A stretch of 64,000 bases of DNA from positions 3,328 through 67,327 of the forward strand of contig DAOSAR010000001.1 of the NCBI GenBank assembly GCA_035360455.1, written 5' to 3'. Numbering within the stretch: the first letter of the stretch is position 1; each line of letters opens with the position of its first letter. Source of the DNA: Candidatus Pacearchaeota archaeon (GTDB lineage: Bacteria; Patescibacteriota; Minisyncoccia; Minisyncoccales; GCA-002788555). A program made the translations under genes and the position numbers. The notes beneath the pieces are model-generated. The model was not told the DNA's origin. It made no database searches and was given only the letters and a program-made list of their open reading frames with translations. Below, one piece after another: positions 1,652-13,110 of this stretch.

Positions 1652-3043
1652 TTATTTTTGAATATTTATTTTTAATTCTTTGAGCTGTTCCTTTCCAACT
1701 TCGGATGGAGCATTCATCATAAGATCTCTTCCCTCTCCTGTTTTTGGAAAAGTAATAACTTCACGAATATTGGGTTCGTTTTCAAGAAGCATCATTAAGC
1801 GATCAAATCCCCAAGCAATACCTCCATGAGGAGGAGCACCTGATTCCAATGCTTTAATCATATGTCCAAAATCTTTTTTGATTTTTTCTTTGGTATAACC
1901 CATTATTTCAAATACAGAAATAAGAGCTTCTGGTTTGTGATTTCTTATACTTCCTCCAGCTATCTCATAACCATTAAGCACTAAATCATATTGGGTTGTA
2001 ATAATATCTTCTATGTTTCTCTTGTCCATGAGTAAATTCATATACTCTTTTTTGGGAGCTGAAAAGGGATTATGCGTAAATGTCCACTTATCATTATCAT
2101 CTTTTTCAAAAAATGGAAAGTCAGTGACCCAACAAAAAGCAAGTAAATTCTCATCATTTTTATTTTTTCTTAAATCGGGCTTATCGCTCTTGTGCATTTC
2201 CATTGCCTCTTTAAAAGTAATGCGTGGAAATGGTATTTGCTGGATAACTTTTTGCGGATAGCACTTTTTTATTGTCTCAATAATTAATTCTTCATTTAAT
2301 CGCATCACCTCTTTCTCTTCTACAAAGCTCATTTCCATGTCTAATTGCGTAAATTCCGGCTGTCTGTCGCCTCTTGAATCTTCATCTCTAAAGCATCTAG
2401 CAAATTGAAAATACCTTTCAAACCCTGCGCACATTAAAAGCTGTTTGTATTGCTGAGGAGATTGTGGTAGGGCATAAAATTTCCCCGGCTCTAGTCTTGA
2501 AGGAACAATATAATCACGAGAACCCTCTGGTGTTGATTTTGTTAGACACGGAGTTTCTATTTCTACAAAACCCTTTTTGTTTAAAATTTCTCTCATACAT
2601 AATATCGTTTTGTGCCTATCACGAATATTTTTTTGCATCCTTTCGCGTCGCAAATCAATATAGCGATATTTAAGTCTTGCCTCTTCGTTAATATCTTTTC
2701 CATCGCCAGAAATATCAAAAGGTAGCGATGTAGATGTATTAAGAATAGACAACGATAAGGCCTCTACTTCAAGTTCACCATTTAATTCTGTTTTTTTAAC
2801 CATTTTTTCTGGTCTTAGATTTACTTTTCCTTCGATTTCTACAATCCACTCAGGCCTACATTTATTTGCAAACGAATGGACTTCTTTGTGCTTTGGTAAA
2901 ATTAATATTTGAGCTTTTCCAGTTGCATCTCTTAGAACTAAAAAAATCAATTTCCCATGATCACGCCGCGCATCTACCCAACCGTTTATTTTCACTTCTT
3001 TTCCTATGTGTTTTTTTAGATCTTTTATATATGTTCTTTGCAT
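1652..3043 (-). CDS. aspS: Aspartyl-tRNA synthetase, bacterial-type core but short (463 aa)
   Basis: FYALPQSPQQYKQLLMCAGFERYFQFARCFRDEDSRGDRQPEFTQLDMEMSF (class II motif 2 region), GGSIRNH, GGIAWGFDRLMMLL (motif 3). Confidence 0.92.
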   Translation of the reverse strand: MQRTYIKDLKKHIGKEVKINGWVDARRDHGKLIFLVLRDATGKAQILILPKHKEVHSFANKCRPEWIVEIEGKVNLRPEKMVKKTELNGELEVEALSLSILNTSTSLPFDISGDGKDINEEARLKYRYIDLRRERMQKNIRDRHKTILCMREILNKKGFVEIETPCLTKSTPEGSRDYIVPSRLEPGKFYALPQSPQQYKQLLMCAGFERYFQFARCFRDEDSRGDRQPEFTQLDMEMSFVEEKEVMRLNEELIIETIKKCYPQKVIQQIPFPRITFKEAMEMHKSDKPDLRKNKNDENLLAFCWVTDFPFFEKDDNDKWTFTHNPFSAPKKEYMNLLMDKRNIEDIITTQYDLVLNGYEIAGGSIRNHKPEALISVFEIMGYTKEKIKKDFGHMIKALESGAPPHGGIAWGFDRLMMLLENEPNIREVITFPKTGEGRDLMMNAPSEVGKEQLKELKINIQK

Positions 3044-3270
3044 AGATATAAAAATATTTAATAACGTTTAAAATAAGTCTGTTATCTTTTTATGTATTCT
3101 TATAAAGTTACAATGTCTTGTTTGGCTCTATCCTTCTAAGGTTCTAGGCAAATATTCAAAAATGTTTTAAATTAAGTAACATTGTGAACGGTGTCATAAA
3201 AATAACTCAACAGCAAACTGAGTATATTTATATCCCAGGTTTAAATTTATAACAATAATATTTTATCACA

Positions 3271-3378
3271 TTTTACCCTACCCCTCAACTCACTATATCT
3301 CAGATGGGGGGAATAAGCGAGGTTGGGATCTTTACAGATAGTTCTCCTGCACAAAATTTGAAAAATATAAGAACCTCG
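3271..3378. repeat. Conserved intergenic element, copy 1 (TTTACC-N16-TATATC core plus about 70 nt)
   Basis: TTTACCctacccctcaactcacTATATCtcagatgggg...gcacaaaatttgaaaaatataagaacc aligns with 10073..10183. It lies directly 3' of the stop of ORF 3392..3610. Confidence 0.6.
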
Positions 3379-3391
3379 CTTTTATGTACCT

Positions 3392-3610
3392 TTATAATTC
3401 TTTATAGCTCTTTTCAAAAATATCTTTTTTTTCAACAGGAAGTTCAATTTCAATAGTAGTGCCTCCTATATATTCATTATTTTTTATTTTTACTTTTCCT
3501 CCACACTCTTCTACTACCTTTATATCTTCTTTTAAATCTCGTTTCTTTTTTAAAATAGTAAGTTTGTTTTTAATAAAAACAAATGGTTTCATATAGAATT
3601 TCATATACAA
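3392..3610 (-). pseudogene. Small ORF, possible C-terminal remnant of a histidine-kinase ATPase domain
   Basis: GGKVKIKNNEYIGGTTIEIELPV resembles the G2-box/C-terminal strand of the adjacent kinase (NGKIWAESQGKGKGSTFYVELPV). The N-terminal half has no kinase similarity. Confidence 0.35.
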
Positions 3611-3635
3611 CTTTGTTTTATTAAACTTTTTTTAT

Positions 3636-5291
3636 TTATTTTACGGGTAGCTCAACATAGAAGGTGGAACCCTTACCTTTGCCTTGGGATTCTGCCCAGA
3701 TTTTGCCATTGTGGGCTTTAACAATTTCTGAGGCAAAGTAGAGGCCTATGCCAACTCCGGAAGGGTTGGTGGAAACTGCATCTTTGGATCTTTCGAATAC
3801 TTGAAAGAGTTTTTCTTTTTCTTTTGGGGTCATACCCATGCCTGTATCTTGAACAATAGTTAGAATAGTTCTTGAGTTGTTGTTGTGCTGTACACTTATT
3901 GTAACTCCACCTTCTTTTGTGTATTTTAGAGCATTGTCAACAAGATTTAAGATAACTTCTCTTAGTTTTTGGGAATCAGCTGTTATTTTGGGTAGGGGGT
4001 GTTTGGGTTTGTTGAATTTAAGGTAGAGATTGTATTTTTGGGCTTCGGGCTGGAATTCATTAACTACTTCTTGGATAATATCTTCTAACTGAACGTTGTC
4101 TTGAAAACTAAATTGAAGTTTGCCTGTTTGGAGTTTGTTGAGATCTAAAAGATCATTTACTAAGTTTATTTCTTTTTCGTTTGATCTTTTAACTTCTTCG
4201 ATGAACTCTCTTGCTTTGCCTTGTACTTTGCCGTAGTTACCAGATAGGGCTAGTTCTAAATATCCTTTCATACTGGAGAGAGGGGTTCTGAGTTGATGGG
4301 AAGCAAGGCTGAGGAACATTGTTTTAGTTTCATCTAACCTTTTGTACTCGTTAGCTACTTTTTCTGCTTTTTTTCTTAGGGCTCTTTCTCTGATAGCTAA
4401 CTTTTCAGCTTCTTCTCTTTTTTTCTCTTCTTCGTGAGAGTAGTTTATAAGCTGGTGACCAAGAAAACAGAAAAAAAGAAAGATAGCTAAGCTTGATATT
4501 CTCCAGGTAAGAGTAGGAGCTAAGAATACTTGGATTAGCAATAATATTCCCATTACTCCTACCAAAAGATCAGTTAAAATTACCCTAACTCCAAAAAGTT
4601 GTTTTGCTATTATTGCATAAGCAGTAAAACCTACAAAAAAGATAGAAGAATAGTTACCAAAACGATAATAGATGTCTGAACCAGTAAGAAGAGGAAAAAT
4701 AATGTTAAATACTATGCTAAATAAAGCAAAAATTCCTATCCCCACAAGAAAGTACTGAAGTTGCTTCTTTTCTTGCGCAGAAAGTTTTTTGTACCCTTTT
4801 AAAATTATAAATAAGCAAAAACCCAAAAGGAAAATAATATATGGAAAAAAACAAAAATAATATAATGGCCCGTAAATCAAGTCAAAACTTCCATCTAGGT
4901 GTATAAAAATATTTTTTATTCCAAAAGATGTAAACAAAAATAAAAGGAAAATAAAGAAAGAAATATAAAAAATAATTTTGAAAATATCTTTTTTGAGTAC
5001 AGGAAAAATTTCATAGAAATAAGTTAAAATAAAGAAAAAAATAAAAGTTGCTGAAAGTAAACTACTACTAACAGCTATTTTACTAAAAAGGAGAGAAAGA
5101 GATGGATTTGTCAATGGGAAAAATTCAGAAACATAGGCACTAATAATCCAAAGAATTATTGATAAAGAGAAATAGAAGAAAAATCGATATTTCTGTTTTT
5201 TTGAATTTTTCAAAAAAACCACCAATCCTAAGAAAAAATTTCCTAAAGAGATTATTATTACAAGAATTGTTTCCCAAGTTCCTAATATCAT
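3636..5291 (-). CDS. Sensor histidine kinase with a large polytopic membrane sensor region
   Basis: About 280 aa of TM helices, a coiled coil, H-box SHQLRTPLSSMKGY, N-box LVDNALKYT, G1 DTGMGM, G2 GVGIGL. Confidence 0.88.
   Translation of the reverse strand: MILGTWETILVIIISLGNFFLGLVVFLKNSKKQKYRFFFYFSLSIILWIISAYVSEFFPLTNPSLSLLFSKIAVSSSLLSATFIFFFILTYFYEIFPVLKKDIFKIIFYISFFIFLLFLFTSFGIKNIFIHLDGSFDLIYGPLYYFCFFPYIIFLLGFCLFIILKGYKKLSAQEKKQLQYFLVGIGIFALFSIVFNIIFPLLTGSDIYYRFGNYSSIFFVGFTAYAIIAKQLFGVRVILTDLLVGVMGILLLIQVFLAPTLTWRISSLAIFLFFCFLGHQLINYSHEEEKKREEAEKLAIRERALRKKAEKVANEYKRLDETKTMFLSLASHQLRTPLSSMKGYLELALSGNYGKVQGKAREFIEEVKRSNEKEINLVNDLLDLNKLQTGKLQFSFQDNVQLEDIIQEVVNEFQPEAQKYNLYLKFNKPKHPLPKITADSQKLREVILNLVDNALKYTKEGGVTISVQHNNNSRTILTIVQDTGMGMTPKEKEKLFQVFERSKDAVSTNPSGVGIGLYFASEIVKAHNGKIWAESQGKGKGSTFYVELPVK
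4287..4560. repeat. 274-bp direct repeat, copy A (last TM, linker and H-box start of the kinase)
   Basis: Aligns without indels to 7633..7906, with about 14 mismatches by hand count (roughly 95% identity). Flanking kinase sequence is much more diverged. Confidence 0.9.
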
Positions 5292-5294
5292 ATT

Positions 5295-6782
5295 TTAAAA
5301 TAAATTTTTAGGTTTCACTTTTTTATTTTCTTCTCCAAATGGTCCTTGTCTAAAAGTGAATATTTTAATTAAGGGATCAACAAATTGTGGAGATTTCTGA
5401 TAAGCATCTTTAAAATCAATATCATTTAACAATGTATTTAAAATTACATCGTGATATTTTTTTATAATTTTATTTTGATTTTTAAAAGATATACCTGGTA
5501 AAGTTTCCAAGTACACAACGAAATGAGGATTATTTTCTTTTTCTTCAATGCCTATTTTAAAATTGTTTATAAAATTTTCCCCTAAAGAATCTATTGCTAT
5601 TTTAACTTGTTCAGGATAAATATTGGCACCAAGGCAAATAACCGCTTGGTCTGTTCTCCCCTTTAAAAATACAAAAGGCCATTTTATTGGTTTTTTCGAA
5701 AATCTATTTTCTTTTAACTCTTCGATTTCGATGTTTTTTTCTATTTCATTAAATTTCTTTACTTCTCCTCTGTCTTTAATTCTATATCTTATAATTGGAA
5801 GTTGGCAAAATTCAAAATTTCTAGTAATTATCAATTCATTATTAATTTCTTCTATATATACTAAAAGAGGAATATATTGGAACACTGAAAAATGTTGTTT
5901 AAATTTAGACGAGTTGTTTAAAAATATTTTTTGAAATAGATTTGAAAATGGGGTAGAAATTGCCATTATACCAGTTTCGCTTGCGCTATACATATCAATT
6001 ATTTCAGATATTAAATTAATATGAAGTTTTTCAGATAAAAAATTTTTAAAATTCCAGGTGAGAGGTTCGCCTGCGCAAAGAGGAATTATTTTATAATCCT
6101 CCCAATTTAATTTTCTTTTATCTCCTTCTTGGATAATTAAACGGAAAAAAGAAGGATAAGTAGAAATTATAACAAAATCATAAAATTTTCCCGTTTCTTC
6201 AAGTAAACCTACTATAGTCTCAGGAGAAAGTCCACACAAGGCAACACTTAATTGATACTTTGAATTTTTTCCAATTTCGATAGAAAAAAGAGTGGCCACA
6301 ATACTAGCATACCAAGTTCCAAGAGCAAATGCATTAATATATAAAACCTTTTTTTCAGAAAAATCTAAAAGATATTCAAGATAAATTTTAATCGATGAAG
6401 GATCGAATTCTTTTTGAAAATGAGATTGGAGCAATGGTTTTCCCGTAGTTCCTCCAGAAGTAGAAAAGATAAAAGGGAATGAAGAAGATGGCTTCGATCT
6501 TTCTTGAAGAGAGTATTGATTTGTATAATTTTCTTTGGTAGTAAGGGGTACATACTTTTTAAAATCATCTATTGTTTTAATCTTGGTATGGTCTTGAATT
6601 TCGTGTTTTTTAAGAAAGTCCCTGTAGGCAGGAACTTTCTCAGCAGCTTCATGAAAGGTTTTTAGAGCAAGATTCTCTCCTTGCTTTTCCCAAAAATCTG
6701 GTTTCATTGAAGTCATAAACCAGATTGCTCTTTTTGGATTGGACATTATGAGGTTTTGCATTATATCAGTAAATTTTGCCAT
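5295..6782 (-). CDS. Adenylate-forming enzyme, phenylacetate-CoA ligase / coenzyme F390 synthetase family (ANL superfamily)
   Basis: FSTSGGTTGKP (P-loop-like AMP motif), YSASETG, IRYRIKDRG, LKGRTDQAVICLGANIYPEQV. Same motif order as PaaK. Confidence 0.72.
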   Translation of the reverse strand: MAKFTDIMQNLIMSNPKRAIWFMTSMKPDFWEKQGENLALKTFHEAAEKVPAYRDFLKKHEIQDHTKIKTIDDFKKYVPLTTKENYTNQYSLQERSKPSSSFPFIFSTSGGTTGKPLLQSHFQKEFDPSSIKIYLEYLLDFSEKKVLYINAFALGTWYASIVATLFSIEIGKNSKYQLSVALCGLSPETIVGLLEETGKFYDFVIISTYPSFFRLIIQEGDKRKLNWEDYKIIPLCAGEPLTWNFKNFLSEKLHINLISEIIDMYSASETGIMAISTPFSNLFQKIFLNNSSKFKQHFSVFQYIPLLVYIEEINNELIITRNFEFCQLPIIRYRIKDRGEVKKFNEIEKNIEIEELKENRFSKKPIKWPFVFLKGRTDQAVICLGANIYPEQVKIAIDSLGENFINNFKIGIEEKENNPHFVVYLETLPGISFKNQNKIIKKYHDVILNTLLNDIDFKDAYQKSPQFVDPLIKIFTFRQGPFGEENKKVKPKNLF

Positions 6783-6801
6783 AGATTTATTTATTATTAA
6801 A

Positions 6802-7584
6802 TTATACCTCTTCCCACAAATCTAAAAATATGGGTTGGGGAGCTTTTTTAAGTGGTTGACCTGAAAGCCACTTTACTATTCCATTAACAACTATTGAGGA
6901 AGTAAGATAAGTAGTAGCGCCAAGCTGAGGACCTGATAGTTCAGAAAGATTTTTTTGACCCATTTTTTTGTAAAACTGTAAAAGATCGGCTGGAAAGGTC
7001 GAGAAAGTATTTTGAAGAAGTTTTAAATAAAATCTATTGTCGCGATAAGTTTCTTCGCCTACAATTTCTCTTAATTTTGGAGAATCAGGGGTAAAAACTA
7101 AAACATAACCTCCCCAAGCAATATTTAAAGGGAAAAAAACTGGCTTTCCTGTATCTTGAGAGTAATCATTAACAAAATATAAAATTTCTTCTGGATCAGC
7201 CATATTTACTACTACATCTGATTTATCTATTAGTTCTTTGGCTAATTTTTTGCTTCTTAAAAAAATAGGATAATACTCAACATTAGCTTTTGGATTTATT
7301 TCTTTTATCATTGAAGCAAGGGCCTCAGCTTTGTTTTTTCCTATGTGTTTATATCTAAAAGCTTGACGGTTAAGATTACTAATATCTACCTTGTCTCCAT
7401 CAATTAAGACAAAGTTCATAAAACCGGTTCTGGCAGCTAAAACTCCAATTTGAGCTCCAAGGCCACAACCCAACAGCATAATTTTGCATTTTTTAATTTT
7501 CTCTTGAAGCTTTTTGGGGATAATGAATTTGTGTCTTAAAACTAAATCTTTATAATTTAAGTTTGGTTTAGAATTTTTTGCCAT
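6802..7584 (-). CDS. E1-like adenylyltransferase, ThiF/MoeB/HesA family (260 aa, no CxxC zinc motifs)
   Basis: KIMLLGCGLGAQIGVLAARTG (Rossmann GxGxxG-like), LIDGDKVDISNLNRQ, KNKAEALASMIKEINP. Confidence 0.75.
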   Translation of the reverse strand: MAKNSKPNLNYKDLVLRHKFIIPKKLQEKIKKCKIMLLGCGLGAQIGVLAARTGFMNFVLIDGDKVDISNLNRQAFRYKHIGKNKAEALASMIKEINPKANVEYYPIFLRSKKLAKELIDKSDVVVNMADPEEILYFVNDYSQDTGKPVFFPLNIAWGGYVLVFTPDSPKLREIVGEETYRDNRFYLKLLQNTFSTFPADLLQFYKKMGQKNLSELSGPQLGATTYLTSSIVVNGIVKWLSGQPLKKAPQPIFLDLWEEV

Positions 7585-7611
7585 ATTATTAATTATTATT
7601 TTACGCTCTTT

Positions 7612-8598
7612 TTAATAAGAATTGCAAGAAACTCTGAGTTGATGGGAGGCAAGGTTGAGGAACATTGTTTTAGTTTGGTCTAAACTCTTGTACTCGTTAG
7701 CTACTTTTTCTGCTTTTTTTCTTAGGGCTCTTTCTCTGATCGCTAACTTCTCAGCTTCCTCTCTTTTTTTCTCTTCTTCGTGAGAGTAGCTTATAAGCTG
7801 GTGACCAAGAAAACAGAAAAAAAGAAAGATAGCTAAGCTTGATATTCTCCAGGTAAGAGTGGGAGCTAAAAATACTTGGATTAGCAATAATATTCCCATA
7901 ATTCCTACTAACATTTCTGTCAGAATAACCTTGATGTTAAAGAGATGATATTTGAGAATGGCAAAGGCAATGATTAGAGGGTAAAGAAATATTACAAAGT
8001 TTCCATAAGGATATAGTTCAAATCCATACCATTGAGGAAGATTAAAAAGACCGCCTATAGCAGCTATTCCTAAGGCTAAAATAAAATAACCAATCTGTTT
8101 TTTCTTTTCTCCTGTTAGGTGGAAATAATTTTTAATTAATGTTCCAAAAGTGATAACAACCAAGGTTAATCCCCAAACAATATTTAAATTAGCTACTATT
8201 CCTGCCTGCGGCCAATAAGAATAAAAAGAATAAGTCTTAAGCTTTGAAATAAAGAAGGGTGTGAATATCAAAATTATTATTAAAAAACTTATTGAATACA
8301 ACAAAATTAAACTTTTTTTTCTTCTTCCTTCTAAATTTAAAAGAATTAAACCAAGATGATAAAGAAATACTGATGAAAAAATTGAACCGACCATTAATAA
8401 TCTAAGAAAAAATAGACTTTTTTCTTCATTTTGAACTGCTTGCCAAAATCCATAATTTAACTGCCAAAAAGATAATGCCAAGCTAAACAAAAAGAAAATT
8501 TGATTTTCTTTTTTACTTTTATTCCTGAAATAAACAAAAATACCTAAAATTAAAATTAAAAAACAATTTATAAATCCTGAAAAAGCGAGAATACTCAT
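7612..8598 (-). CDS. Truncated sensor kinase paralog: TM sensor, linker and H-box start only, no catalytic domain
   Basis: A diverged polytopic N-terminus, then about 90 aa near-identical to the 551-aa kinase, ending ...LASHQLRVSCNSY*. Its start overlaps the methyltransferase stop (ATGA). Confidence 0.7.
   Translation of the reverse strand: MSILAFSGFINCFLILILGIFVYFRNKSKKENQIFFLFSLALSFWQLNYGFWQAVQNEEKSLFFLRLLMVGSIFSSVFLYHLGLILLNLEGRRKKSLILLYSISFLIIILIFTPFFISKLKTYSFYSYWPQAGIVANLNIVWGLTLVVITFGTLIKNYFHLTGEKKKQIGYFILALGIAAIGGLFNLPQWYGFELYPYGNFVIFLYPLIIAFAILKYHLFNIKVILTEMLVGIMGILLLIQVFLAPTLTWRISSLAIFLFFCFLGHQLISYSHEEEKKREEAEKLAIRERALRKKAEKVANEYKSLDQTKTMFLNLASHQLRVSCNSY
7633..7906. repeat. 274-bp direct repeat, copy B
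   Basis: See 4287..4560. Homology begins 21 nt after the stop codon side of the truncated ORF (tctgagttgatggga...). Confidence 0.9.
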
Positions 8599-9392
8599 AA
8601 TGGTTTGTTAACTTTGTTTACTAAAACTTGTTTTCCAAAGCTGATTTTCCATTTTGAATTTTGAAAACCAATTTGAATTAATAAATTTTCGTATTCTTCT
8701 TCGCTAAGAAATGTATACTCTTCGACTGGTGTAAAAAATTTTATCATTTTAATTGCAAAATATGGTAAAAAACATTTTTGTTTTATCCATTGACATGGGT
8801 TTAATAGATAAATTGAAGCAAGCAAAGCTCCTGTTAAACGACTAACATCTTTTTTGGGGGTGCTCCATATTAATACTCCACCGGGTTTTAAAATTCTATA
8901 TATCTCTTGAAAGATTACTTTCAGTGCATTTTTGCCTTTTTGTCCTTGGGATTCTATAATATACGTTATAACTTTACTCGATACAATTCCATCAAAATAG
9001 TTATCAGGAAATGGTAGTTTTTGAGAAAGATCAATATGTTGTAGTTTTATAGAAGAGTTGCCTAGTTCTTGGAGTCTTTTTTTAGCAGGTTCTAAATAAA
9101 GATCTCCTGCTATAATTTCTACTTCTCCTTTTGATTTTTCCAAGATTAGTTCTGTAACAGGAAGAGATCCACAACCAAGATCTAACCATTTTTGACCTTT
9201 TTGAGGATTAATAAATTCATTAATTACTTTTAATTCATTTTGATAATGCGGAAGATTTAAGAAAGCATCTCTATATTTGCTTATCATTAATTCTGCATAT
9301 TCTTTCCAAAACTCCCTTTCTTCTTCTTGAATTTTGTTTAAATCCTCTTCTCTTGACACGTTTTTTTTGTTTTGATAAGATTCTTGTGCCAT
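8595..9392 (-). CDS. Class I SAM-dependent methyltransferase
   Basis: WLDLGCGSLPVT (motif I), IIAGDL (post-I), FDGIVSS, LKPGGVLIWSTP. Confidence 0.75.
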   Translation of the reverse strand: MAQESYQNKKNVSREEDLNKIQEEEREFWKEYAELMISKYRDAFLNLPHYQNELKVINEFINPQKGQKWLDLGCGSLPVTELILEKSKGEVEIIAGDLYLEPAKKRLQELGNSSIKLQHIDLSQKLPFPDNYFDGIVSSKVITYIIESQGQKGKNALKVIFQEIYRILKPGGVLIWSTPKKDVSRLTGALLASIYLLNPCQWIKQKCFLPYFAIKMIKFFTPVEEYTFLSEEEYENLLIQIGFQNSKWKISFGKQVLVNKVNKPL

Positions 9393-9403
9393 ATATAAGT
9401 GGT

Positions 9404-9570
9404 AAGACAGCTTTCTTCATTTAAGTCTTTATTGGTTTTTGAATTTATATATATTTATCTATATAAAACAGAACAGAAGTTCTGTTTTATATATTTATTC
9501 CTTACCTTATTTTTTATTAATATTAACTATTAAGCTCAAAAACCTCAACAAAATAAAAGAAAGCTGTCTT
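9404..9570. repeat. MITE-like nested inverted repeat in the operon upstream region
   Basis: Perfect 14-bp terminal inverted repeat AAGACAGCTTTCTT (9404..9417) / AAGAAAGCTGTCTT (9557..9570). It encloses a perfect 12-bp hairpin ATAAAACAGAAC-agaa-GTTCTGTTTTAT (9462..9490). Confidence 0.6.
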
Positions 9571-9835
9571 TTATTTTAATTAGGTTAACCTTTGTGTTTA
9601 TTTTATACTCTTTGAGTGAAGATTGCAAAAAAATATTTAAAACCGACACTTTAAGAATTAAGAAGTTATTAAGTTCAAGAATTTAACGCAACATTATGGT
9701 AGTATACCATAAAGTAATAAGAAGCGTTAAATTCTATAAAAACATATCATCGTCTAAGTTTTATTAAATTAATAAATTTAATAAAGTTCAAATCTCTTTA
9801 TTAAAATGCAGACCGAAAATCAACTTTTCATTAAT

Positions 9836-9906
9836 TTATTTTCTCACTTAGCTTTGAATTAAATTAACCCAATTATGCCAGGCGTCTGTATTTTGTGGTT
9901 TATCAT
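9836..9906 (-). pseudogene. Fragment of a paralog of the 12142..12867 gene (last ~17 codons only)
   Basis: 9836..9883 matches 12142..12189 with 3 mismatches in 48 nt. It translates YDKPQNTDAWHNWVNLIQS* versus ...STNAWHNWINLIQSQVRK*. Upstream homology is lost and stops appear. Confidence 0.6.
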
Positions 9907-9930
9907 AGTTTCTTTAAAAACTTCAAAATG

Positions 9931-9960
9931 AAAAAACAGGATTTTTGAATCCTGTTTTTT
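9931..9960. terminator. Symmetric (bidirectional-looking) terminator hairpin
   Basis: AAAAAACAGGAtttttgaATCCTGTTTTTT, with A-run and T-run on either side. Confidence 0.55.
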
Positions 9961-10072
9961 AGTAACTCCCGCAATGGGACAATTTCAGAATGCTTAAATG
10001 GTCAGATTCAATACAATGTCCTGAGATAATGATAAAACAAATACAAGAACTATTGCAGGTTGTTTAAAATGT

Positions 10073-10183
10073 ATTTACCCCACCTTTCAACTCACTATTT
10101 CTCAGGTGGGGGTGGGAGGTAAAGTTGAGGTTCTTTGAGAAAGTGTATATGGTACTCGTACGCAATTTTTGAAAAATAACAGG
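10073..10183. repeat. Conserved intergenic element, copy 2
   Basis: TTTACCccacctttcaactcacTATTTCtcaggtggggg...cgcaatttttgaaaaataacagg. Contains a perfect 8-bp hairpin CCCCACCT-N18-AGGTGGGG. Confidence 0.6.
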
Positions 10184-10187
10184 AGGG

Positions 10188-10224
10188 TTTACCCTACTCC
10201 TCTACTCACTATATTTTCTAAGGG
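10188..10224. repeat. Conserved intergenic element, copy 3 (core only)
   Basis: TTTACCctactcctctactcacTATATTttctaaggg. It ends 1 nt before the stop codon of ORF 10226..10765. Confidence 0.55.
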
Positions 10225-10225
10225 A

Positions 10226-10765
10226 TCAATATTTTACTTTTTCCCAATCTGTATTTAAAATACAACCCTCTATGCATTCTTCCCTAGTTGAATAACCCTT
10301 AGTTGAAAAATCTATAGTTATAGTTGGAAAATCCTTCCAATATTTCCAATATGACCAAACCCCTTCTCCTTGTTGTGTAATTTCATAAGTGCATCGTTTT
10401 TTACAATCATTAACTTTTGCAACGTGATTAGAAATTATTATACTCCCTGTTACAATAATGGCTATAATAATTAACCAAAACCACCATTTTTTCCAGACTG
10501 GACTTTTCTCAACTTTTTCTCTATGTTGAAACTCCCAAATCCATTTATGAAAGTAATTTATAACTAAAGCTACTATTGCTGAAAAAGAAATTAAAGTAAA
10601 AAACATTCCAAATATTTCCCCTACTGAAGCCTCATCTTCATTTAGGCTTATAATAGTTATAACCGTCATTAAAACACTAATAATAGCAAAAACAGCAAAT
10701 TTAATTAAAAATTCTCTTTTAAAATTAAACTTAATATTAGATTTTTGTATTGGTTCTTTTTCCAT
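10226..10765 (-). CDS. Hypothetical membrane protein with a C-terminal 4-Cys extracytoplasmic domain
   Basis: Three predicted TM helices, including KKWWFWLIIIAIIVTG (the same WWFWL anchor motif as ORF 19797..20339). The tail has C..C...C..C. Confidence 0.5.
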   Translation of the reverse strand: MEKEPIQKSNIKFNFKREFLIKFAVFAIISVLMTVITIISLNEDEASVGEIFGMFFTLISFSAIVALVINYFHKWIWEFQHREKVEKSPVWKKWWFWLIIIAIIVTGSIIISNHVAKVNDCKKRCTYEITQQGEGVWSYWKYWKDFPTITIDFSTKGYSTREECIEGCILNTDWEKVKY

Positions 10766-11000
10766 AATTTTTAATTTTTTATTATAAATAGTGGTATCTT
10801 TTTATATTCTCTTAATTTATTAATAATTTTTTAATTATTTAAATTCTTCATTTTTTGGGTTTATCAAGTTTTTTGATTCTTGTATTGTATTGTATTATTC
10901 TCTTCAAAATAATTTACTATCCATAAAAAGATTTTTTTTATTATATTCTTTGCTTTTTTGAATTTGATCTTGGCTCATTTTTTTTCTTAATTTCTATATT

Positions 11001-11957
11001 TTATTTTAAAAGATTTTTATATTGTTTATTTTTTTGCCTTTTGAGAATTAAACTTGCAATTAAAAAACAAATTCTAGTTGCTCCTAATGCCCAAGAAGAA
11101 ATAGGAATGTTATTTACCATTGCTAATAATGCCGAAGTTAAAGTTGGCTTGGCGGTTTCTTCCTCAGGAAAAAATTGAGATTCATTAGAAATCGTTGTAG
11201 GTTCTTCTGGATTCTCTAAAGTTGGCTCAGTAACCTTTTTTTCGGGCAGAGATTGAAATTCATTAGAAGCTGTTGTTGGCTTTTCTGGATTCTCGGTAGA
11301 ATTTTCTATCTTTTGTTCTGGTTCTGAAATTGATTCTATTTGTTGAGTCTGTGGTTTCGCTTCTGGTTGAGAAACAATTTCGGAAGTTCGTTCTTGGGTT
11401 ACTTCTGGAGTTTGTTTTGTCTGAGGAGTTGGTGAAACAGAGTTTAAAGACGAATTTATTTCTGGTAATGTTGATGGTGAAGGTGTGTTTATATCTGGCG
11501 TGTAAGTATAATTAGTTGGAGGAGTATATGGAATGGATGGATAATCATTTATCCTTTCAACACTAGAAACAAGACAATTTTCATTAGAATCAAAAAGGTA
11601 GATTTCATCACCCATGCTTAAGAATCCCCCATCATCTATATTAATATATTGATTTTTATATTGCCGCATACTGAAGCATCCGATGCCATATTTAACAAGA
11701 TATTTATTGGTTCCATATTCATTTTTGAGTATAACTTCTCTTTTATTATCAACTACTGAATCAACAAAATATTTTTGAAGATTAACTTTTTTAGGAACAT
11801 TACCAACCTTACAAGTGTTTGTTTGGCCAAAGCTATTAATAATAGTATCTCCAAACATTGGTGAGATAAGTGTATCAATATAAATATATTGCCCTTCGAA
11901 AAAATCACTGCTATAGCAGTCATAGTTATAATCAATAATAATATTGTGAAATTCCAT
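11001..11957 (-). CDS. Surface-protein-like ORF: globular N-domain, P/T/E/Q-rich low-complexity repeats, C-terminal TM plus basic tail
   Basis: Internal repeat ENPEKPTTASNEFQSLPEKK / ENPEEPTTISNESQFFPEEE. C-terminus ICFLIASLILKRQKNKQYK. No signal peptide in this frame (see 11932..12105). Confidence 0.55.
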   Translation of the reverse strand: MEFHNIIIDYNYDCYSSDFFEGQYIYIDTLISPMFGDTIINSFGQTNTCKVGNVPKKVNLQKYFVDSVVDNKREVILKNEYGTNKYLVKYGIGCFSMRQYKNQYINIDDGGFLSMGDEIYLFDSNENCLVSSVERINDYPSIPYTPPTNYTYTPDINTPSPSTLPEINSSLNSVSPTPQTKQTPEVTQERTSEIVSQPEAKPQTQQIESISEPEQKIENSTENPEKPTTASNEFQSLPEKKVTEPTLENPEEPTTISNESQFFPEEETAKPTLTSALLAMVNNIPISSWALGATRICFLIASLILKRQKNKQYKNLLK

Positions 11958-12105: not shown

Positions 12106-12141
12106 TGTGATCGAATTTTTTATTTCTTAAGATTACCGGCT

Positions 12142-12867
12142 TTATTTTCTCACTTGGCTTTGGATTAAATTAATCCAATTATGCCAGGCATTAGTTGATT
12201 CAAGATTATCCCAACCTTCTTGAGTGTTTAAATCTATATTATCTTTTTCGATTGTAGTTTGGAGGTCGTTGTAATATTTAGAGATGGTTTCAAAACTTTG
12301 AACAAAGGTTTGTTCTTCTGGGGTTAAGTTATCTTTATTTACTGGATAGTATCTTTGAACTAATGACCAGGACTGAGCAGTTGTGGCATAAGCAGTACTT
12401 TCAAGTTCTAAAATACTGTTTTGCCAGTGTTCTTTTGAAGTATCTTTATATTGAGTGTTTCTTTCCCATTTATGAGTAAGTTCATGATATAAGATAGGCA
12501 GCCAGATTTCACTTTTAATATTCAAATATGGGTTGATATATAAAATATCACTGACCATATCGTATTGGGCAGGATGATCTTCTGGGTAGGTTTTTGCTTC
12601 GGGAATAAGTTCTGTGATATCTCCTAGAGGAATTTCTCCTTTTTTAAGTTCTTCCAATACATAGTTATGAACTTCCAATAACCCTGATGGAATCTCTGGA
12701 GCATTATCTACCATATTTACCGCTTCATTTAATCTTTCAAGTACAATCTTTTGATTAGTTTTCTTTGAGCCTCCTAAAAGAAAACCTGCAAAGAAAAGGG
12801 CAACAATAATCAAAATGCCAATAATAAGGAAAAGTTTATTCTTTCCCCGTTTTTTGGGGTTTAACAT
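12142..12867 (-). CDS. Membrane-anchored HExxH protein (putative zinc metallopeptidase-like)
   Basis: N-terminal anchor KLFLIIGILIIVALFFAGFLLGG. The motif LPILYHELTHKW (HELTH) is the only catalytic-type signature. Confidence 0.45.
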   Translation of the reverse strand: MLNPKKRGKNKLFLIIGILIIVALFFAGFLLGGSKKTNQKIVLERLNEAVNMVDNAPEIPSGLLEVHNYVLEELKKGEIPLGDITELIPEAKTYPEDHPAQYDMVSDILYINPYLNIKSEIWLPILYHELTHKWERNTQYKDTSKEHWQNSILELESTAYATTAQSWSLVQRYYPVNKDNLTPEEQTFVQSFETISKYYNDLQTTIEKDNIDLNTQEGWDNLESTNAWHNWINLIQSQVRK

Positions 12868-13020
12868 ATTGTCGCAATGGATTTTATTTGAACGGCGTCC
12901 AATAGAAAAGGACTTCCGTTCTTATGACAATTCCTTTCGGAACTGTCTATCGTCTTTTGACGATAACCATTGCGACAAAAAAACAGAACGGAAGTCCGTC
13001 TCTATGTCGCAATGGATTTT
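12868..13020 (-). promoter_or_regulatory. Structured 5' leader with mutually exclusive helices
   Basis: TGTCGCAATGGATTTT at 12870..12885 and 13005..13020, with the inverted copy CCATTGCGACA at 12967..12977. Perfect 13-bp pair 12910..12922 / 12985..12997. Hairpins at 12948..12965 and about 12924..12946. Confidence 0.5.
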
Positions 13021-13110
13021 TATGCCATGTCCTTTTAGGATTTAGGCAATTAATGTTATAAATTTAAATTTTCAAAAAAAATAAAAAACAGAAGATCTCT
13101 TTTCTTTAAG

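Follow-up and report, generated by a model that had tools for sequence, protein, structure and literature searches.

A LOOT-family RNA as a candidate cis-acting leader switch upstream of an HExxH-protein gene in Patescibacteria

Introduction

In translational switches such as the add adenine riboswitch, the 3′ strand of the closing helix alternately pairs with the start region. The c-di-GMP-I (GEMM-I) riboswitch has an aptamer braced by a tetraloop–receptor contact, very heterogeneous downstream genes and often a terminator platform, and the leader of C. difficile cwpV is an invertible switch in which a terminator is formed in one orientation. Here we analyze a structured region upstream of the gene for an HExxH membrane protein in a 64,000-nt stretch of contig DAOSAR010000001.1 (assembly GCA_035360455.1, forward-strand positions 3,328 to 67,327; the whole stretch is referred to as the window, and all coordinates count from its first letter). 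The region belongs to the LOOT RNA family, and we put at roughly 55% the probability that the HExxH-protein operon has its 5′ leader at 13060..12868 of the minus strand and that this leader, with LOOT as its core, works as a cis-acting conformational switch with two outputs, termination and start-site occlusion.

LOOT is typed in Rfam as 'Gene; sRNA' (RF03000), that is, as a small RNA (sRNA). According to the searchable text of the sources, it originates from the motif set of Weinberg et al. 2017 (PMC5737381) and was imported through ZWD (PMC7779021). A study using CaCoFold remarked on its unusually many cross-covariations, 28 over ∼43 bp in six helices (PMC7657543). The searchable literature (the main text of PMC5737381, PMC7779021, PMC11701678 and PMC7657543) gives no function for LOOT; in the searchable main text of PMC5737381, 'Loot' occurs merely as an author name in the reference list. 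An earlier annotation of the window, made from its letters and open reading frames (ORFs) and hereafter called the sequence-only reading, had flagged ∼150 nt directly upstream of the HExxH gene as a leader with competing helices.

Results

The flagged region matches the LOOT family over its full length

In an Rfam scan of the whole window, the sole non-tRNA match above the curated threshold was LOOT (RF03000), at 13048..12926 of the minus strand. The match scored 63.8 bits, compared with a gathering score of 46.4, and covered model positions 1-121 of 121 (E = 1e-9 for the window). Judged by this match, the flagged 150 nt are a member of a known RNA family, so that a motif the sequence-only reading had not recognized now has a name, and the instance itself is not new. 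The helix described there as a:a′ is the outer stem of LOOT P2, the segment b is part of apical P2, and the two small hairpins are P3 and P4. All of the described elements are present on the minus strand and had been placed to within 1 nt. The proposed extent was correct with respect to these elements and incorrect at its start: the structured element begins 28 nt further upstream, at 13048, with P1, and the element b2 had been overlooked. The features of the leader, in transcribed order, are the following.

13049..13060, minus strand: 5′ flank motif TATAACATTAAT, the window form of the family motif ACAAYYHAW (typically TTAACAATTTAAT), just 5′ of P1
13023..13048, minus strand: LOOT P1 hairpin, UGCC-UAAA-UCCU AAA AGGA-CAU-GGCA, from the Rfam alignment (model positions 1-33)
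13016..13022, minus strand: A-rich single-stranded linker UAAAAAU, its last 5 nt within the 16-nt direct repeat
13015..13005, minus strand: a, the 5′ arm of P2, CCATTGCGACA (RNA CCAUUGCGACA), from the Rfam alignment and a repeat search
12979..13004, minus strand: apical P2, the inner hairpin AGAGACGGA / UCUGUUUUU plus b, from folding and the Rfam alignment
12997..12985, minus strand: b, GGACTTCCGTTCT (RNA GGACUUCCGUUCU), the 5′ arm of the long-range helix
12977..12967 (with the U, 12978..12967), minus strand: a′, the 3′ arm of P2, TGTCGCAATGG (RNA U-UGUCGCAAUGG), complementary to a and a2
12965..12948, minus strand: LOOT P3 hairpin, TATCGTC-AAAA-GACGATA (RNA UAUCGUC-AAAA-GACGAUA), from the Rfam alignment
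12947..12926, minus strand: LOOT P4 hairpin, GACAGTTCC-GAAA-GGAATTGTC (RNA GACAGUUCC-GAAA-GGAAUUGUC), the end of the Rfam model
12922..12910 (extended into the U-tract, 12922..12902), minus strand: b′, AGAACGGAAGTCC (RNA AGAACGGAAGUCC), then TTTTCTATT, the 3′ arm of the long-range helix
12901..12909, minus strand: U-rich tract UUUUCUAUU, directly 3′ of b′
12900..12890, minus strand: b2, GGACGCCGTTC (RNA GGACGCCGUUC), an imperfect second copy of b, 3′ of the U-tract
12870..12885, minus strand: second exact copy of the 16-mer, AAAAUCCAUUGCGACA, which holds a2 and occupies the ribosome-binding region
12880..12870, minus strand: a2, ending 2 nt before the ATG at 12867
12142..12867, minus strand: the presumed regulated gene (241 aa), whose protein has a membrane helix at its N terminus and an HELTH motif

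The Rfam model stops at P4, and b′, the U-tract, b2 and a2 all lie outside it. P1 with its conserved internal loop (CCUAAa / CAUGG), followed by the AAAA linker, is present in the window (UGCCUAAAU...ACAUGGCA-UAAAAAU, 13048..13016); the AAAA of the linker is invariant in the family (invariant columns A28-A30). The window also has the long, variable P2, with an outer stem of 11 perfect bp, and the two GNRA-type hairpins. Its P3 forms a perfect stem with an AAAA loop, where at least 90% of the family have GAAA, and its P4 loop is GAAA; across the family, P3 consists of 8 pairs, all of them covarying, and is 95% paired. Two traits of an extended LOOT element are found as well, namely the complementarity of apical P2 to a segment after P4 that is followed by a U-rich tract (13 perfect bp, then UUUUCUAUU) and a co-oriented ORF tens of nucleotides past b′ (the ATG lies 42 nt after b′). 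No further LOOT copies were detected in the window, even at E up to 0.5.

The internal loop of P1 (CCUAAAU / ACAUGG) resembles the 11-nt GAAA-tetraloop receptor, and the orthologous leader L263, described below, has the canonical CCUAAG/UAUGG at this place; A-C in place of G-U is an isosteric replacement in this receptor. The receptor motif is described in PMC2615604. We infer that the receptor-like loop of P1 may dock a GAAA loop and thereby provide a tertiary brace, as in riboswitch aptamers.

The repeats within the leader are exact and far exceed what chance would give. An exact 16-nt direct repeat, AAAATCCATTGCGACA, lies at 13020..13005 and 12885..12870 (spacing 135), and the 64 kb contain only these two exact copies of the 16-mer, plus the inverted a′; the complementarity of a′ to a2 spans 12 bp. 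For the 13-mer b, one exact direct and one exact inverted copy were found, a match count reached in 0 of 100 shuffles. The helix b:b′ comprises 13 perfect bp and can be extended to 21 bp (13005..12985 with 12922..12902, including one G-U pair and one C-U mismatch). Furthermore, b2 and b′ can form a local hairpin (6 + 4 bp) with the U-tract as its loop, and this hairpin is part of the minimum free energy structure of the window leader. The 171-nt RNA has a predicted folding energy of −67.9 kcal/mol, compared with −33.8 ± 3.7 kcal/mol for shuffled sequences (z = −9.2, 0 of 200). A consensus scan also called a mini terminator inside P2 (GACGG-ACUU-CCGUU, then a U-run; 13000-12987 plus 12984-12978). 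The U-run after b that it uses, to which the sequence-only reading had drawn attention, is indeed present in the window and is not conserved, being absent even from the closest orthologous leader (L263); both the U-run and the mini terminator are probably incidental.

LOOT relatives conserve two helices that cannot coexist

To place the window in its family, we gathered LOOT loci with a sequence pattern for P1 from one genome per species, metagenomes and viral contigs. Among the matches listed there were at least 134 unique LOOT cores, 127 loci passed strict criteria, and 123 sequences were used in a plain MAFFT alignment. The loci mostly belong to the Patescibacteria, or candidate phyla radiation (CPR), with Levy-, Gottesman-, Curtiss-, Roizman-, Doudna-, Staskawicz- and Saccharibacteria as well as Paceibacterota represented. 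The scan of viral contigs gave mostly chance matches and at least one genuine LOOT variant (L253): a divergent LOOT with b′ and a U-tract (L253 / L220, IMGVR_UViG_3300010346_002174), located on a contig classed as viral.

In every sampled locus, apical P2 was complementary to the segment directly after P4 (median longest helix 14 bp); the loci contain 82 distinct b sequences. A control with mismatched loci was weakened by consensus sequences that the loci share, and covariation in the alignment was used instead. On the MAFFT alignment, which had been fitted to no structure, RNAalifold itself predicted b:b′. The family core of this helix consists of 12 pairs, is 94% paired in the 123 sequences and shows compensatory double changes at 12 of 12 pairs; sliding the partner columns dropped pairing to 43-59%. 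In the 9 nt after b′, the mean T fraction was 0.72, compared with a background of 0.32, and at least six of the nine positions were T in 114 of the 127 loci.

The inner hairpin of P2 shares nucleotides with b:b′, is 76% paired in the family and covaries too. Indeed, column 79 covaries both with column 90, its partner in the inner hairpin, and with column 183, its partner in b′. Since b:b′ and the inner hairpin share nucleotides and both covary, they look like a terminator/antiterminator pair, and at the level of the alignment two conserved helices that are unable to coexist are the signature of a switch. Conserved, mutually exclusive helices of the kind that make up riboswitch expression platforms are thus present, with b pairing either with the inner P2 strand or with b′. 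With regard to intrinsic terminators, the stem and the U-tract are conserved, the 'loop' is ∼75 nt of structured RNA, and a consensus scan makes no call for this helix. A b2-like element was detected 5-15 nt past b′ in 36 of the 127 loci (at least 28%) at p<0.05, with about six expected by chance, and its sequence tracks that of b′ across loci (CUGGUGG with CCACCA, CUAGCGG with CCGCUA).

The comparison with relatives bears directly on the sequence-only reading, which had proposed a transcribed leader with mutually exclusive helices and had described b:b′, on account of its perfect 13 bp and U-tract, as terminator-like. Both proposals were supported: the 123 aligned relatives keep the competing pairings with compensatory changes, the helix with its U-tract is conserved, and it competes with a hairpin inside P2 that likewise covaries.

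The same repeats might instead act as DNA, as the sequence-only reading had also considered. The inverted copies (a′/a2 or a/a′) could flip the segment between them, or the direct 16-mers could delete 135 bp, in either case toggling the gene. The leader has exact repeats suited to this (12 bp inverted, 16 bp direct), recombinases are common near LOOT relatives, and by sequence logic a flip of a′..a2 would swap b′ and the T-tract for the complement of b2 and an A-tract, removing the terminator. However, two positions of b:b′ are U-G in 93 of the 123 sequences each, where the other DNA strand would have C-A, and these conserved pairs therefore identify b:b′ as an RNA helix of the transcribed strand. 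The GNRA loops and the covariation in all helices also point to RNA. Moreover, the segment P3-P4-b′ was flipped in 0 of ∼140 LOOT loci, four public contigs among the matches listed carry identical leaders together with an identical protein, a2 occurs in only 10% of the family, and no recombinase lies in the stretch of the window that was examined. A DNA-level switch hence appears highly improbable.

A subset of loci carries a copy of the P2 arm at the start codon

In 13 of 134 loci, a perfect duplicate of 9 nt or more from the P2 5′ arm, in many cases together with the AAAA linker, lies 16-36 nt past b′. The a2 sequences are unrelated between loci, which amounts to ∼13 independent loci, or ∼10% of the LOOT loci. 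With few exceptions (L130 and the longest copy in L051), the copy stops 0-3 nt short of an ATG or GTG; allowing one mismatch adds L200, in which a2 ends before a GTG. The claim of the sequence-only reading that a′ can pair with either the distal or the start-proximal copy of a thus extends to other loci, where the start-proximal copy recurs in the same position. Complementarity between a′ and the tail exceeded the 95th percentile of mismatched-locus controls in 13 of 125 loci. When any LOOT segment was searched against the 80 nt after b′, 19 loci exceeded the 95th percentile, 13 of them through a′; for the other LOOT segments, no enrichment of complementarity to the pre-ORF region was seen in the 125 loci. 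Internal differences between a and a2 were observed only in L200 and L210, where A-to-G changes keep the pairing with a′. Among loci with homologous cargo methyltransferase genes, L027 has one a/a′/a2 triple and L132/L141 have another, a hint that P2 and a2 may co-evolve.

The window leader can also be compared with that of an orthologue from a different assembly (L263), whose protein is 77% identical and whose leader scores 58.8 bits as LOOT. The orthologous leader keeps a, a′ and a2 at 33 of 33 positions, with an overall identity of 76.5% for the leader and 75.5% for the coding sequence. The second copy of the 16-mer is 100% conserved in the orthologue, and compensatory changes between the two leaders were found in P1 and P3.

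LOOT is positioned as a leader rather than as an independent gene

The nearest downstream ORF was co-oriented with LOOT in 115 of 117 loci, and the median gap between b′ and the ORF was 36 nt, which is too short for a promoter. The upstream neighbor was divergent in 76 of 105 loci (72%; median gap 134 nt; Fisher p = 2e-32). Outside the Rfam model, the motif ACAAYYHAW was found 9-17 nt upstream of P1 in 55 of 127 loci, with a TATAAT-like box 7-9 nt further upstream. Behind the stop codon of a co-directional upstream gene, the order is TATAAT box, 7-9 nt, TTAACAATTTAAT and P1. The 5′ flank motif, at 13049..13060 in the window, is probably the transcript start and could possibly be a protein-binding site instead. 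Pairing of this motif with the start region was discarded, as only 4 of 80 loci reached p<0.05, which is chance level. Taken together, the co-oriented ORF, the short gap, the divergent upstream gene and the promoter-like box indicate that LOOT heads a transcription unit, an arrangement for which the Rfam type 'sRNA' is ill suited. The Rfam model lacks the 3′ part of the element, and the family is probably mistyped as sRNA.

In the window, LOOT lies 61 nt downstream of a tRNA-Leu gene, and an 11-nt copy of TTCTGTTTTTT is found after the tRNA (13093-13083). Adjacency to a tRNA was rejected as a trait of the family (2 of 110 loci only). We also searched for a repeat of the tRNA-Leu 3′ end, which would mark an integrated island, and found none.

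The Rfam type, which counts against a leader, raises the alternative that LOOT is a free-standing, trans-acting sRNA. Here, b:b′ and the U-tract would be a constitutive terminator, possibly a 3′ pseudoknot, and the downstream gene would be expressed through leaky read-through; a2, where present, would be the target of the a′ seed of the sRNA, and a would be an intramolecular mask. The strong GC-rich helix with a T-tract in ∼90% of the loci and the diversity of the downstream genes are in line with this, and a stable RNA could be expected to have the compact, tertiary-looking fold that the receptor-like loop and the GNRA loops suggest. However, an sRNA gene is expected to be positioned independently of its flanking genes, whereas the 115 of 117 co-oriented ORFs at a median of 36 nt and the 72% divergent upstream neighbors are unlike an independent gene. 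The inner P2 hairpin covaries, although a constitutive terminator would not need a competitor, and b2 and a2 are conserved although they would lie beyond the putative 3′ end. Furthermore, the only complementarity found for a′ is in cis, at the adjoining ORF. We therefore regard a free-standing sRNA as unlikely.

LOOT loci are often found near serine recombinases

A large serine recombinase (Resolvase + Recombinase + Zn_ribbon_recom) was encoded within a few kb in 47 of 127 loci (37%), in 42 of them upstream. Serine recombinases are also the largest family among the upstream neighbors; nine end ∼41 nt before P1, and many are divergent within 60-350 nt. An excisionase-like HTH_17 gene was found 12-64 nt from P1 in 17 of 127 loci (13%). 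At these frequencies, neither gene is a defining trait of LOOT. Loci with serine recombinase or HTH_17 genes include L102, L106, L109, L166 and L057, as well as L064, L200 and L121. Judged by these recombinase and HTH_17 genes, LOOT marks a family of integrative elements in Patescibacteria. The downstream genes, although highly diverse, are enriched for functions typical of cargo, among them restriction endonucleases (Mrr and others), DNA methylases, GmrSD, SNase, Ltp-type lipoproteins, zinc-ribbon proteins and membrane proteins. Near the window LOOT, neither a serine recombinase nor an HTH_17 gene was found among the Pfam-scanned ORFs of at least 90 aa (1652-11957 downstream) and the genes called over ∼3 kb upstream; the sequence-only reading was thus right in seeing no recombinase here, yet more than a third of the relatives have one nearby.

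One locus is interrupted. In L171 (Ga0137358_10050874; from position 30), LOOT is complete up to and including the 5′ half of P4, after which unrelated GC-rich sequence takes over; the junction reflects either recombination inside LOOT or an assembly chimera.

Given this context, LOOT might serve the mobile element itself, as a cofactor, by regulating the large serine recombinase or the excisionase, or by marking the end of the element, with the a/a2 repeat being a by-product of the joining of LOOT and cargo. In addition to the recombinase and HTH_17 counts, this would account for the cargo-like downstream genes (restriction-modification, Mrr, GmrSD, Ltp, nucleases), for the five linker nucleotides in the repeat that are unneeded for pairing with a′, and for the LOOT of L171, which is broken inside P4 and joined to unrelated DNA. 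However, serine recombinases leave a shared core of only 2 bp, unlike the direct repeats of 9-18 bp seen here. P1 lies outside the repeat and is nevertheless always present, so the repeat is not a target-site duplication of the whole element. The position of a2, which abuts the start codon nearly always, and the lack of a recombinase in the examined stretch of the window also speak against this alternative. Finally, a service to the element would be compatible with a leader function and would not replace it. As an explanation in its own right, we consider it rather improbable, more so than a free-standing sRNA.

Predicted energies are compatible with two alternative states

In the window, with 148 nt transcribed and the polymerase on the U-tract, the predicted energies were −59.1 kcal/mol for the fold with P2 and −58.0 kcal/mol for the fold with the extended b:b′ helix. 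The best fold of the full leader (−74.3 kcal/mol) has P1-P4 formed, b′:b2 paired and the start region free, and forcing a′:a2 gave −73.1 kcal/mol, a cost of 1.2 kcal/mol. Over the 127 loci, the nested alternative folds differed by a median of −2.5 kcal/mol (sd 3.5).

A leader switch could operate on these folds as follows. In the ON fold, P2 would be complete, with a:a′ formed and the inner hairpin sequestering b, b′ would be taken up by the local b′:b2 hairpin, and the start region (a2 + AUG) would be single-stranded. In the OFF fold, b would leave the inner hairpin and pair with b′, which together with the U-tract after b′ would give an intrinsic terminator; in transcripts extended past this point, a′, now released, would pair with a2 and bury positions −14 to −3 of the start site. 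The trigger may be a metabolite, a protein, or a state of the mobile element or of the host. The receptor-like loop of P1 and a GAAA loop might hold the LOOT core together as a compact sensing domain. Under this model, termination at ∼12905 and start-site occlusion would both take place, and the two outputs would be coupled.

Several points weigh against the leader switch. When only the 13-bp b:b′ helix is considered, the window favors P2 by 6.4 kcal/mol. The arms of b:b′ are ∼75 nt apart and enclose P3, P4 and a′, which makes the terminator atypical. If outer P2 persists, b:b′ becomes a pseudoknot of at least 13 bp in a loop of ∼26 nt (family consensus ∼20 nt), a sterically difficult arrangement, and in the OFF fold a′:a2 crosses b:b′, so that the coupled model needs a pseudoknot with long loops. 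Approximately 90% of the LOOT loci are without a2, and start-site occlusion is therefore an add-on and not the core function of the family. In addition, the downstream proteins fall into 87 clusters among 115, unlike the coherent, ligand-related gene set of a classical metabolite riboswitch, and the downstream genes of the sampled loci point to no candidate ligand. The sample itself is biased, since it was selected by the P1 pattern and covers the matches listed, and some of its loci are close relatives.

The HExxH gene and its surroundings

The HExxH protein had no significant match in Pfam, PADLOC or NCBIfam and thus received no family assignment. LOOT was present upstream of other HExxH homologues in only one of 11 contigs examined, that of the orthologue described above. 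In three contigs (L259, L261, L262), the HExxH gene directly follows or overlaps the end of a restriction-modification or nuclease gene (SNase, N6_N4 methylase/Mrr or Eco57I-type), and in three others it abuts an upstream ORF of no identified family; all six are without a leader. This arrangement suggests that the uncharacterized, membrane metalloprotease-like HExxH protein is a partner of restriction or nuclease systems.

Further HExxH orthologues (L260, 1285-1515; L265; L266) lie behind a different structured leader, which had no Rfam match at E up to 0.1. Its order is x (UGUCUGCCCA), x′ (UGGGCAGACA) and x2 (UGUCUGC, 2 nt before the AUG), the same logic as in the window leader. It also has a hairpin-loop segment, GGGCAGUCAACCU, that is complementary to a downstream AGGUUAGCUGCCC, followed by a U-rich tract, and its fold has a z-score of −6.6. 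On the basis of these elements, this leader may be an undescribed RNA motif of convergent design.

Next to the HExxH gene, a 70-nt direct repeat (81% identical; 9835-9904 and 12141-12210) duplicates the 3′ end of the gene and brackets a 2.3-kb block with ORFs of 57, 318 and 179 aa; the genes beyond differ in the sister contig L257. The repeat may be the scar of a cassette exchange. Two tandem 78-nt repeats (73% identical) are located at 11139-11294 within the 318-aa ORF, which is rich in Pro, Thr and Glu and thus encodes a repetitive surface-type protein. Beside the HExxH gene, the window also carries the genes for bacterial IF-2, RbfA and a DHH phosphoesterase, and the NCBI label 'Candidatus Pacearchaeota archaeon' is therefore probably a taxonomic misassignment.

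Discussion

The comparative evidence from the alignment upholds the reading of the flagged region as a set of competing helices and extends it beyond the model in the Rfam database. LOOT is one of many orphan structured RNAs, and the comparative results offer it a concrete, testable role, that of a leader switch built from terminator, antiterminator and start-site-decoy helices. They also offer a setting, namely the cargo that serine-recombinase elements carry in the Patescibacteria, a little-studied group that is largely uncultured. Overall, the analysis suggests that LOOT acts across its family as a cis-acting switch for genes carried as cargo by mobile elements of CPR bacteria. If the role as a leader switch is confirmed, LOOT would point to an unknown regulatory signal and would supply a native regulatory part to organisms for which tools of genetic control are currently lacking; the need for inducible systems has been noted (PMC11665869).

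A more far-reaching proposal, which we make tentatively and to which we give somewhat less than even odds, is that LOOT is not an sRNA and instead constitutes a widespread cis-acting RNA switch of patescibacterial (CPR) mobile elements. It would gate cargo genes such as those for restriction-modification enzymes, nucleases and surface proteins via a terminator whose 5′ arm is hidden in the P2 loop. In the subclass that includes the window, the P2 5′ arm would be an exact decoy of the start region of the gene, with a′ toggling between decoy and start. As none of the known riboswitch classes matches, the signal that it senses would be new.

Compared with known systems, the leader resembles C. 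difficile cwpV in having inverted repeats between promoter and ORF and a state-dependent terminator, and recombinases are common near LOOT relatives. It differs in that a second orientation was never observed for LOOT, in its RNA-specific G-U pairs and in the lack of a recombinase in the examined stretch of the window. The c-di-GMP-I (GEMM-I) riboswitch resembles LOOT in lifestyle only, with no similarity in sequence or secondary structure and no Rfam match. To LOOT as described in Rfam (RF03000), the window leader corresponds in its full-length match, the P1 loop CCUAAA/CAUGG, the AAAA linker, the long P2 and the GNRA-type P3/P4, whereas its P3 loop is AAAA instead of GAAA and its genomic arrangement is that of a 5′ leader, not of an sRNA gene. 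With riboswitches and attenuators, including add, it shares mutually exclusive helices that use the same nucleotides and a GC-rich helix with a U-tract behind it. As in those systems, there is also a folded domain, probably with a tetraloop-receptor contact, and a segment, a′, that can pair inside this domain or, alternatively, with the ribosome-binding region. In contrast to these systems, the genes downstream of LOOT share no pathway, the 5′ arm of the terminator lies in a hairpin loop ∼75 nt upstream of the 3′ arm, and the place of a Shine–Dalgarno sequence as the partner in the start region is taken by an 11-18-nt stretch that duplicates the P2 arm exactly.

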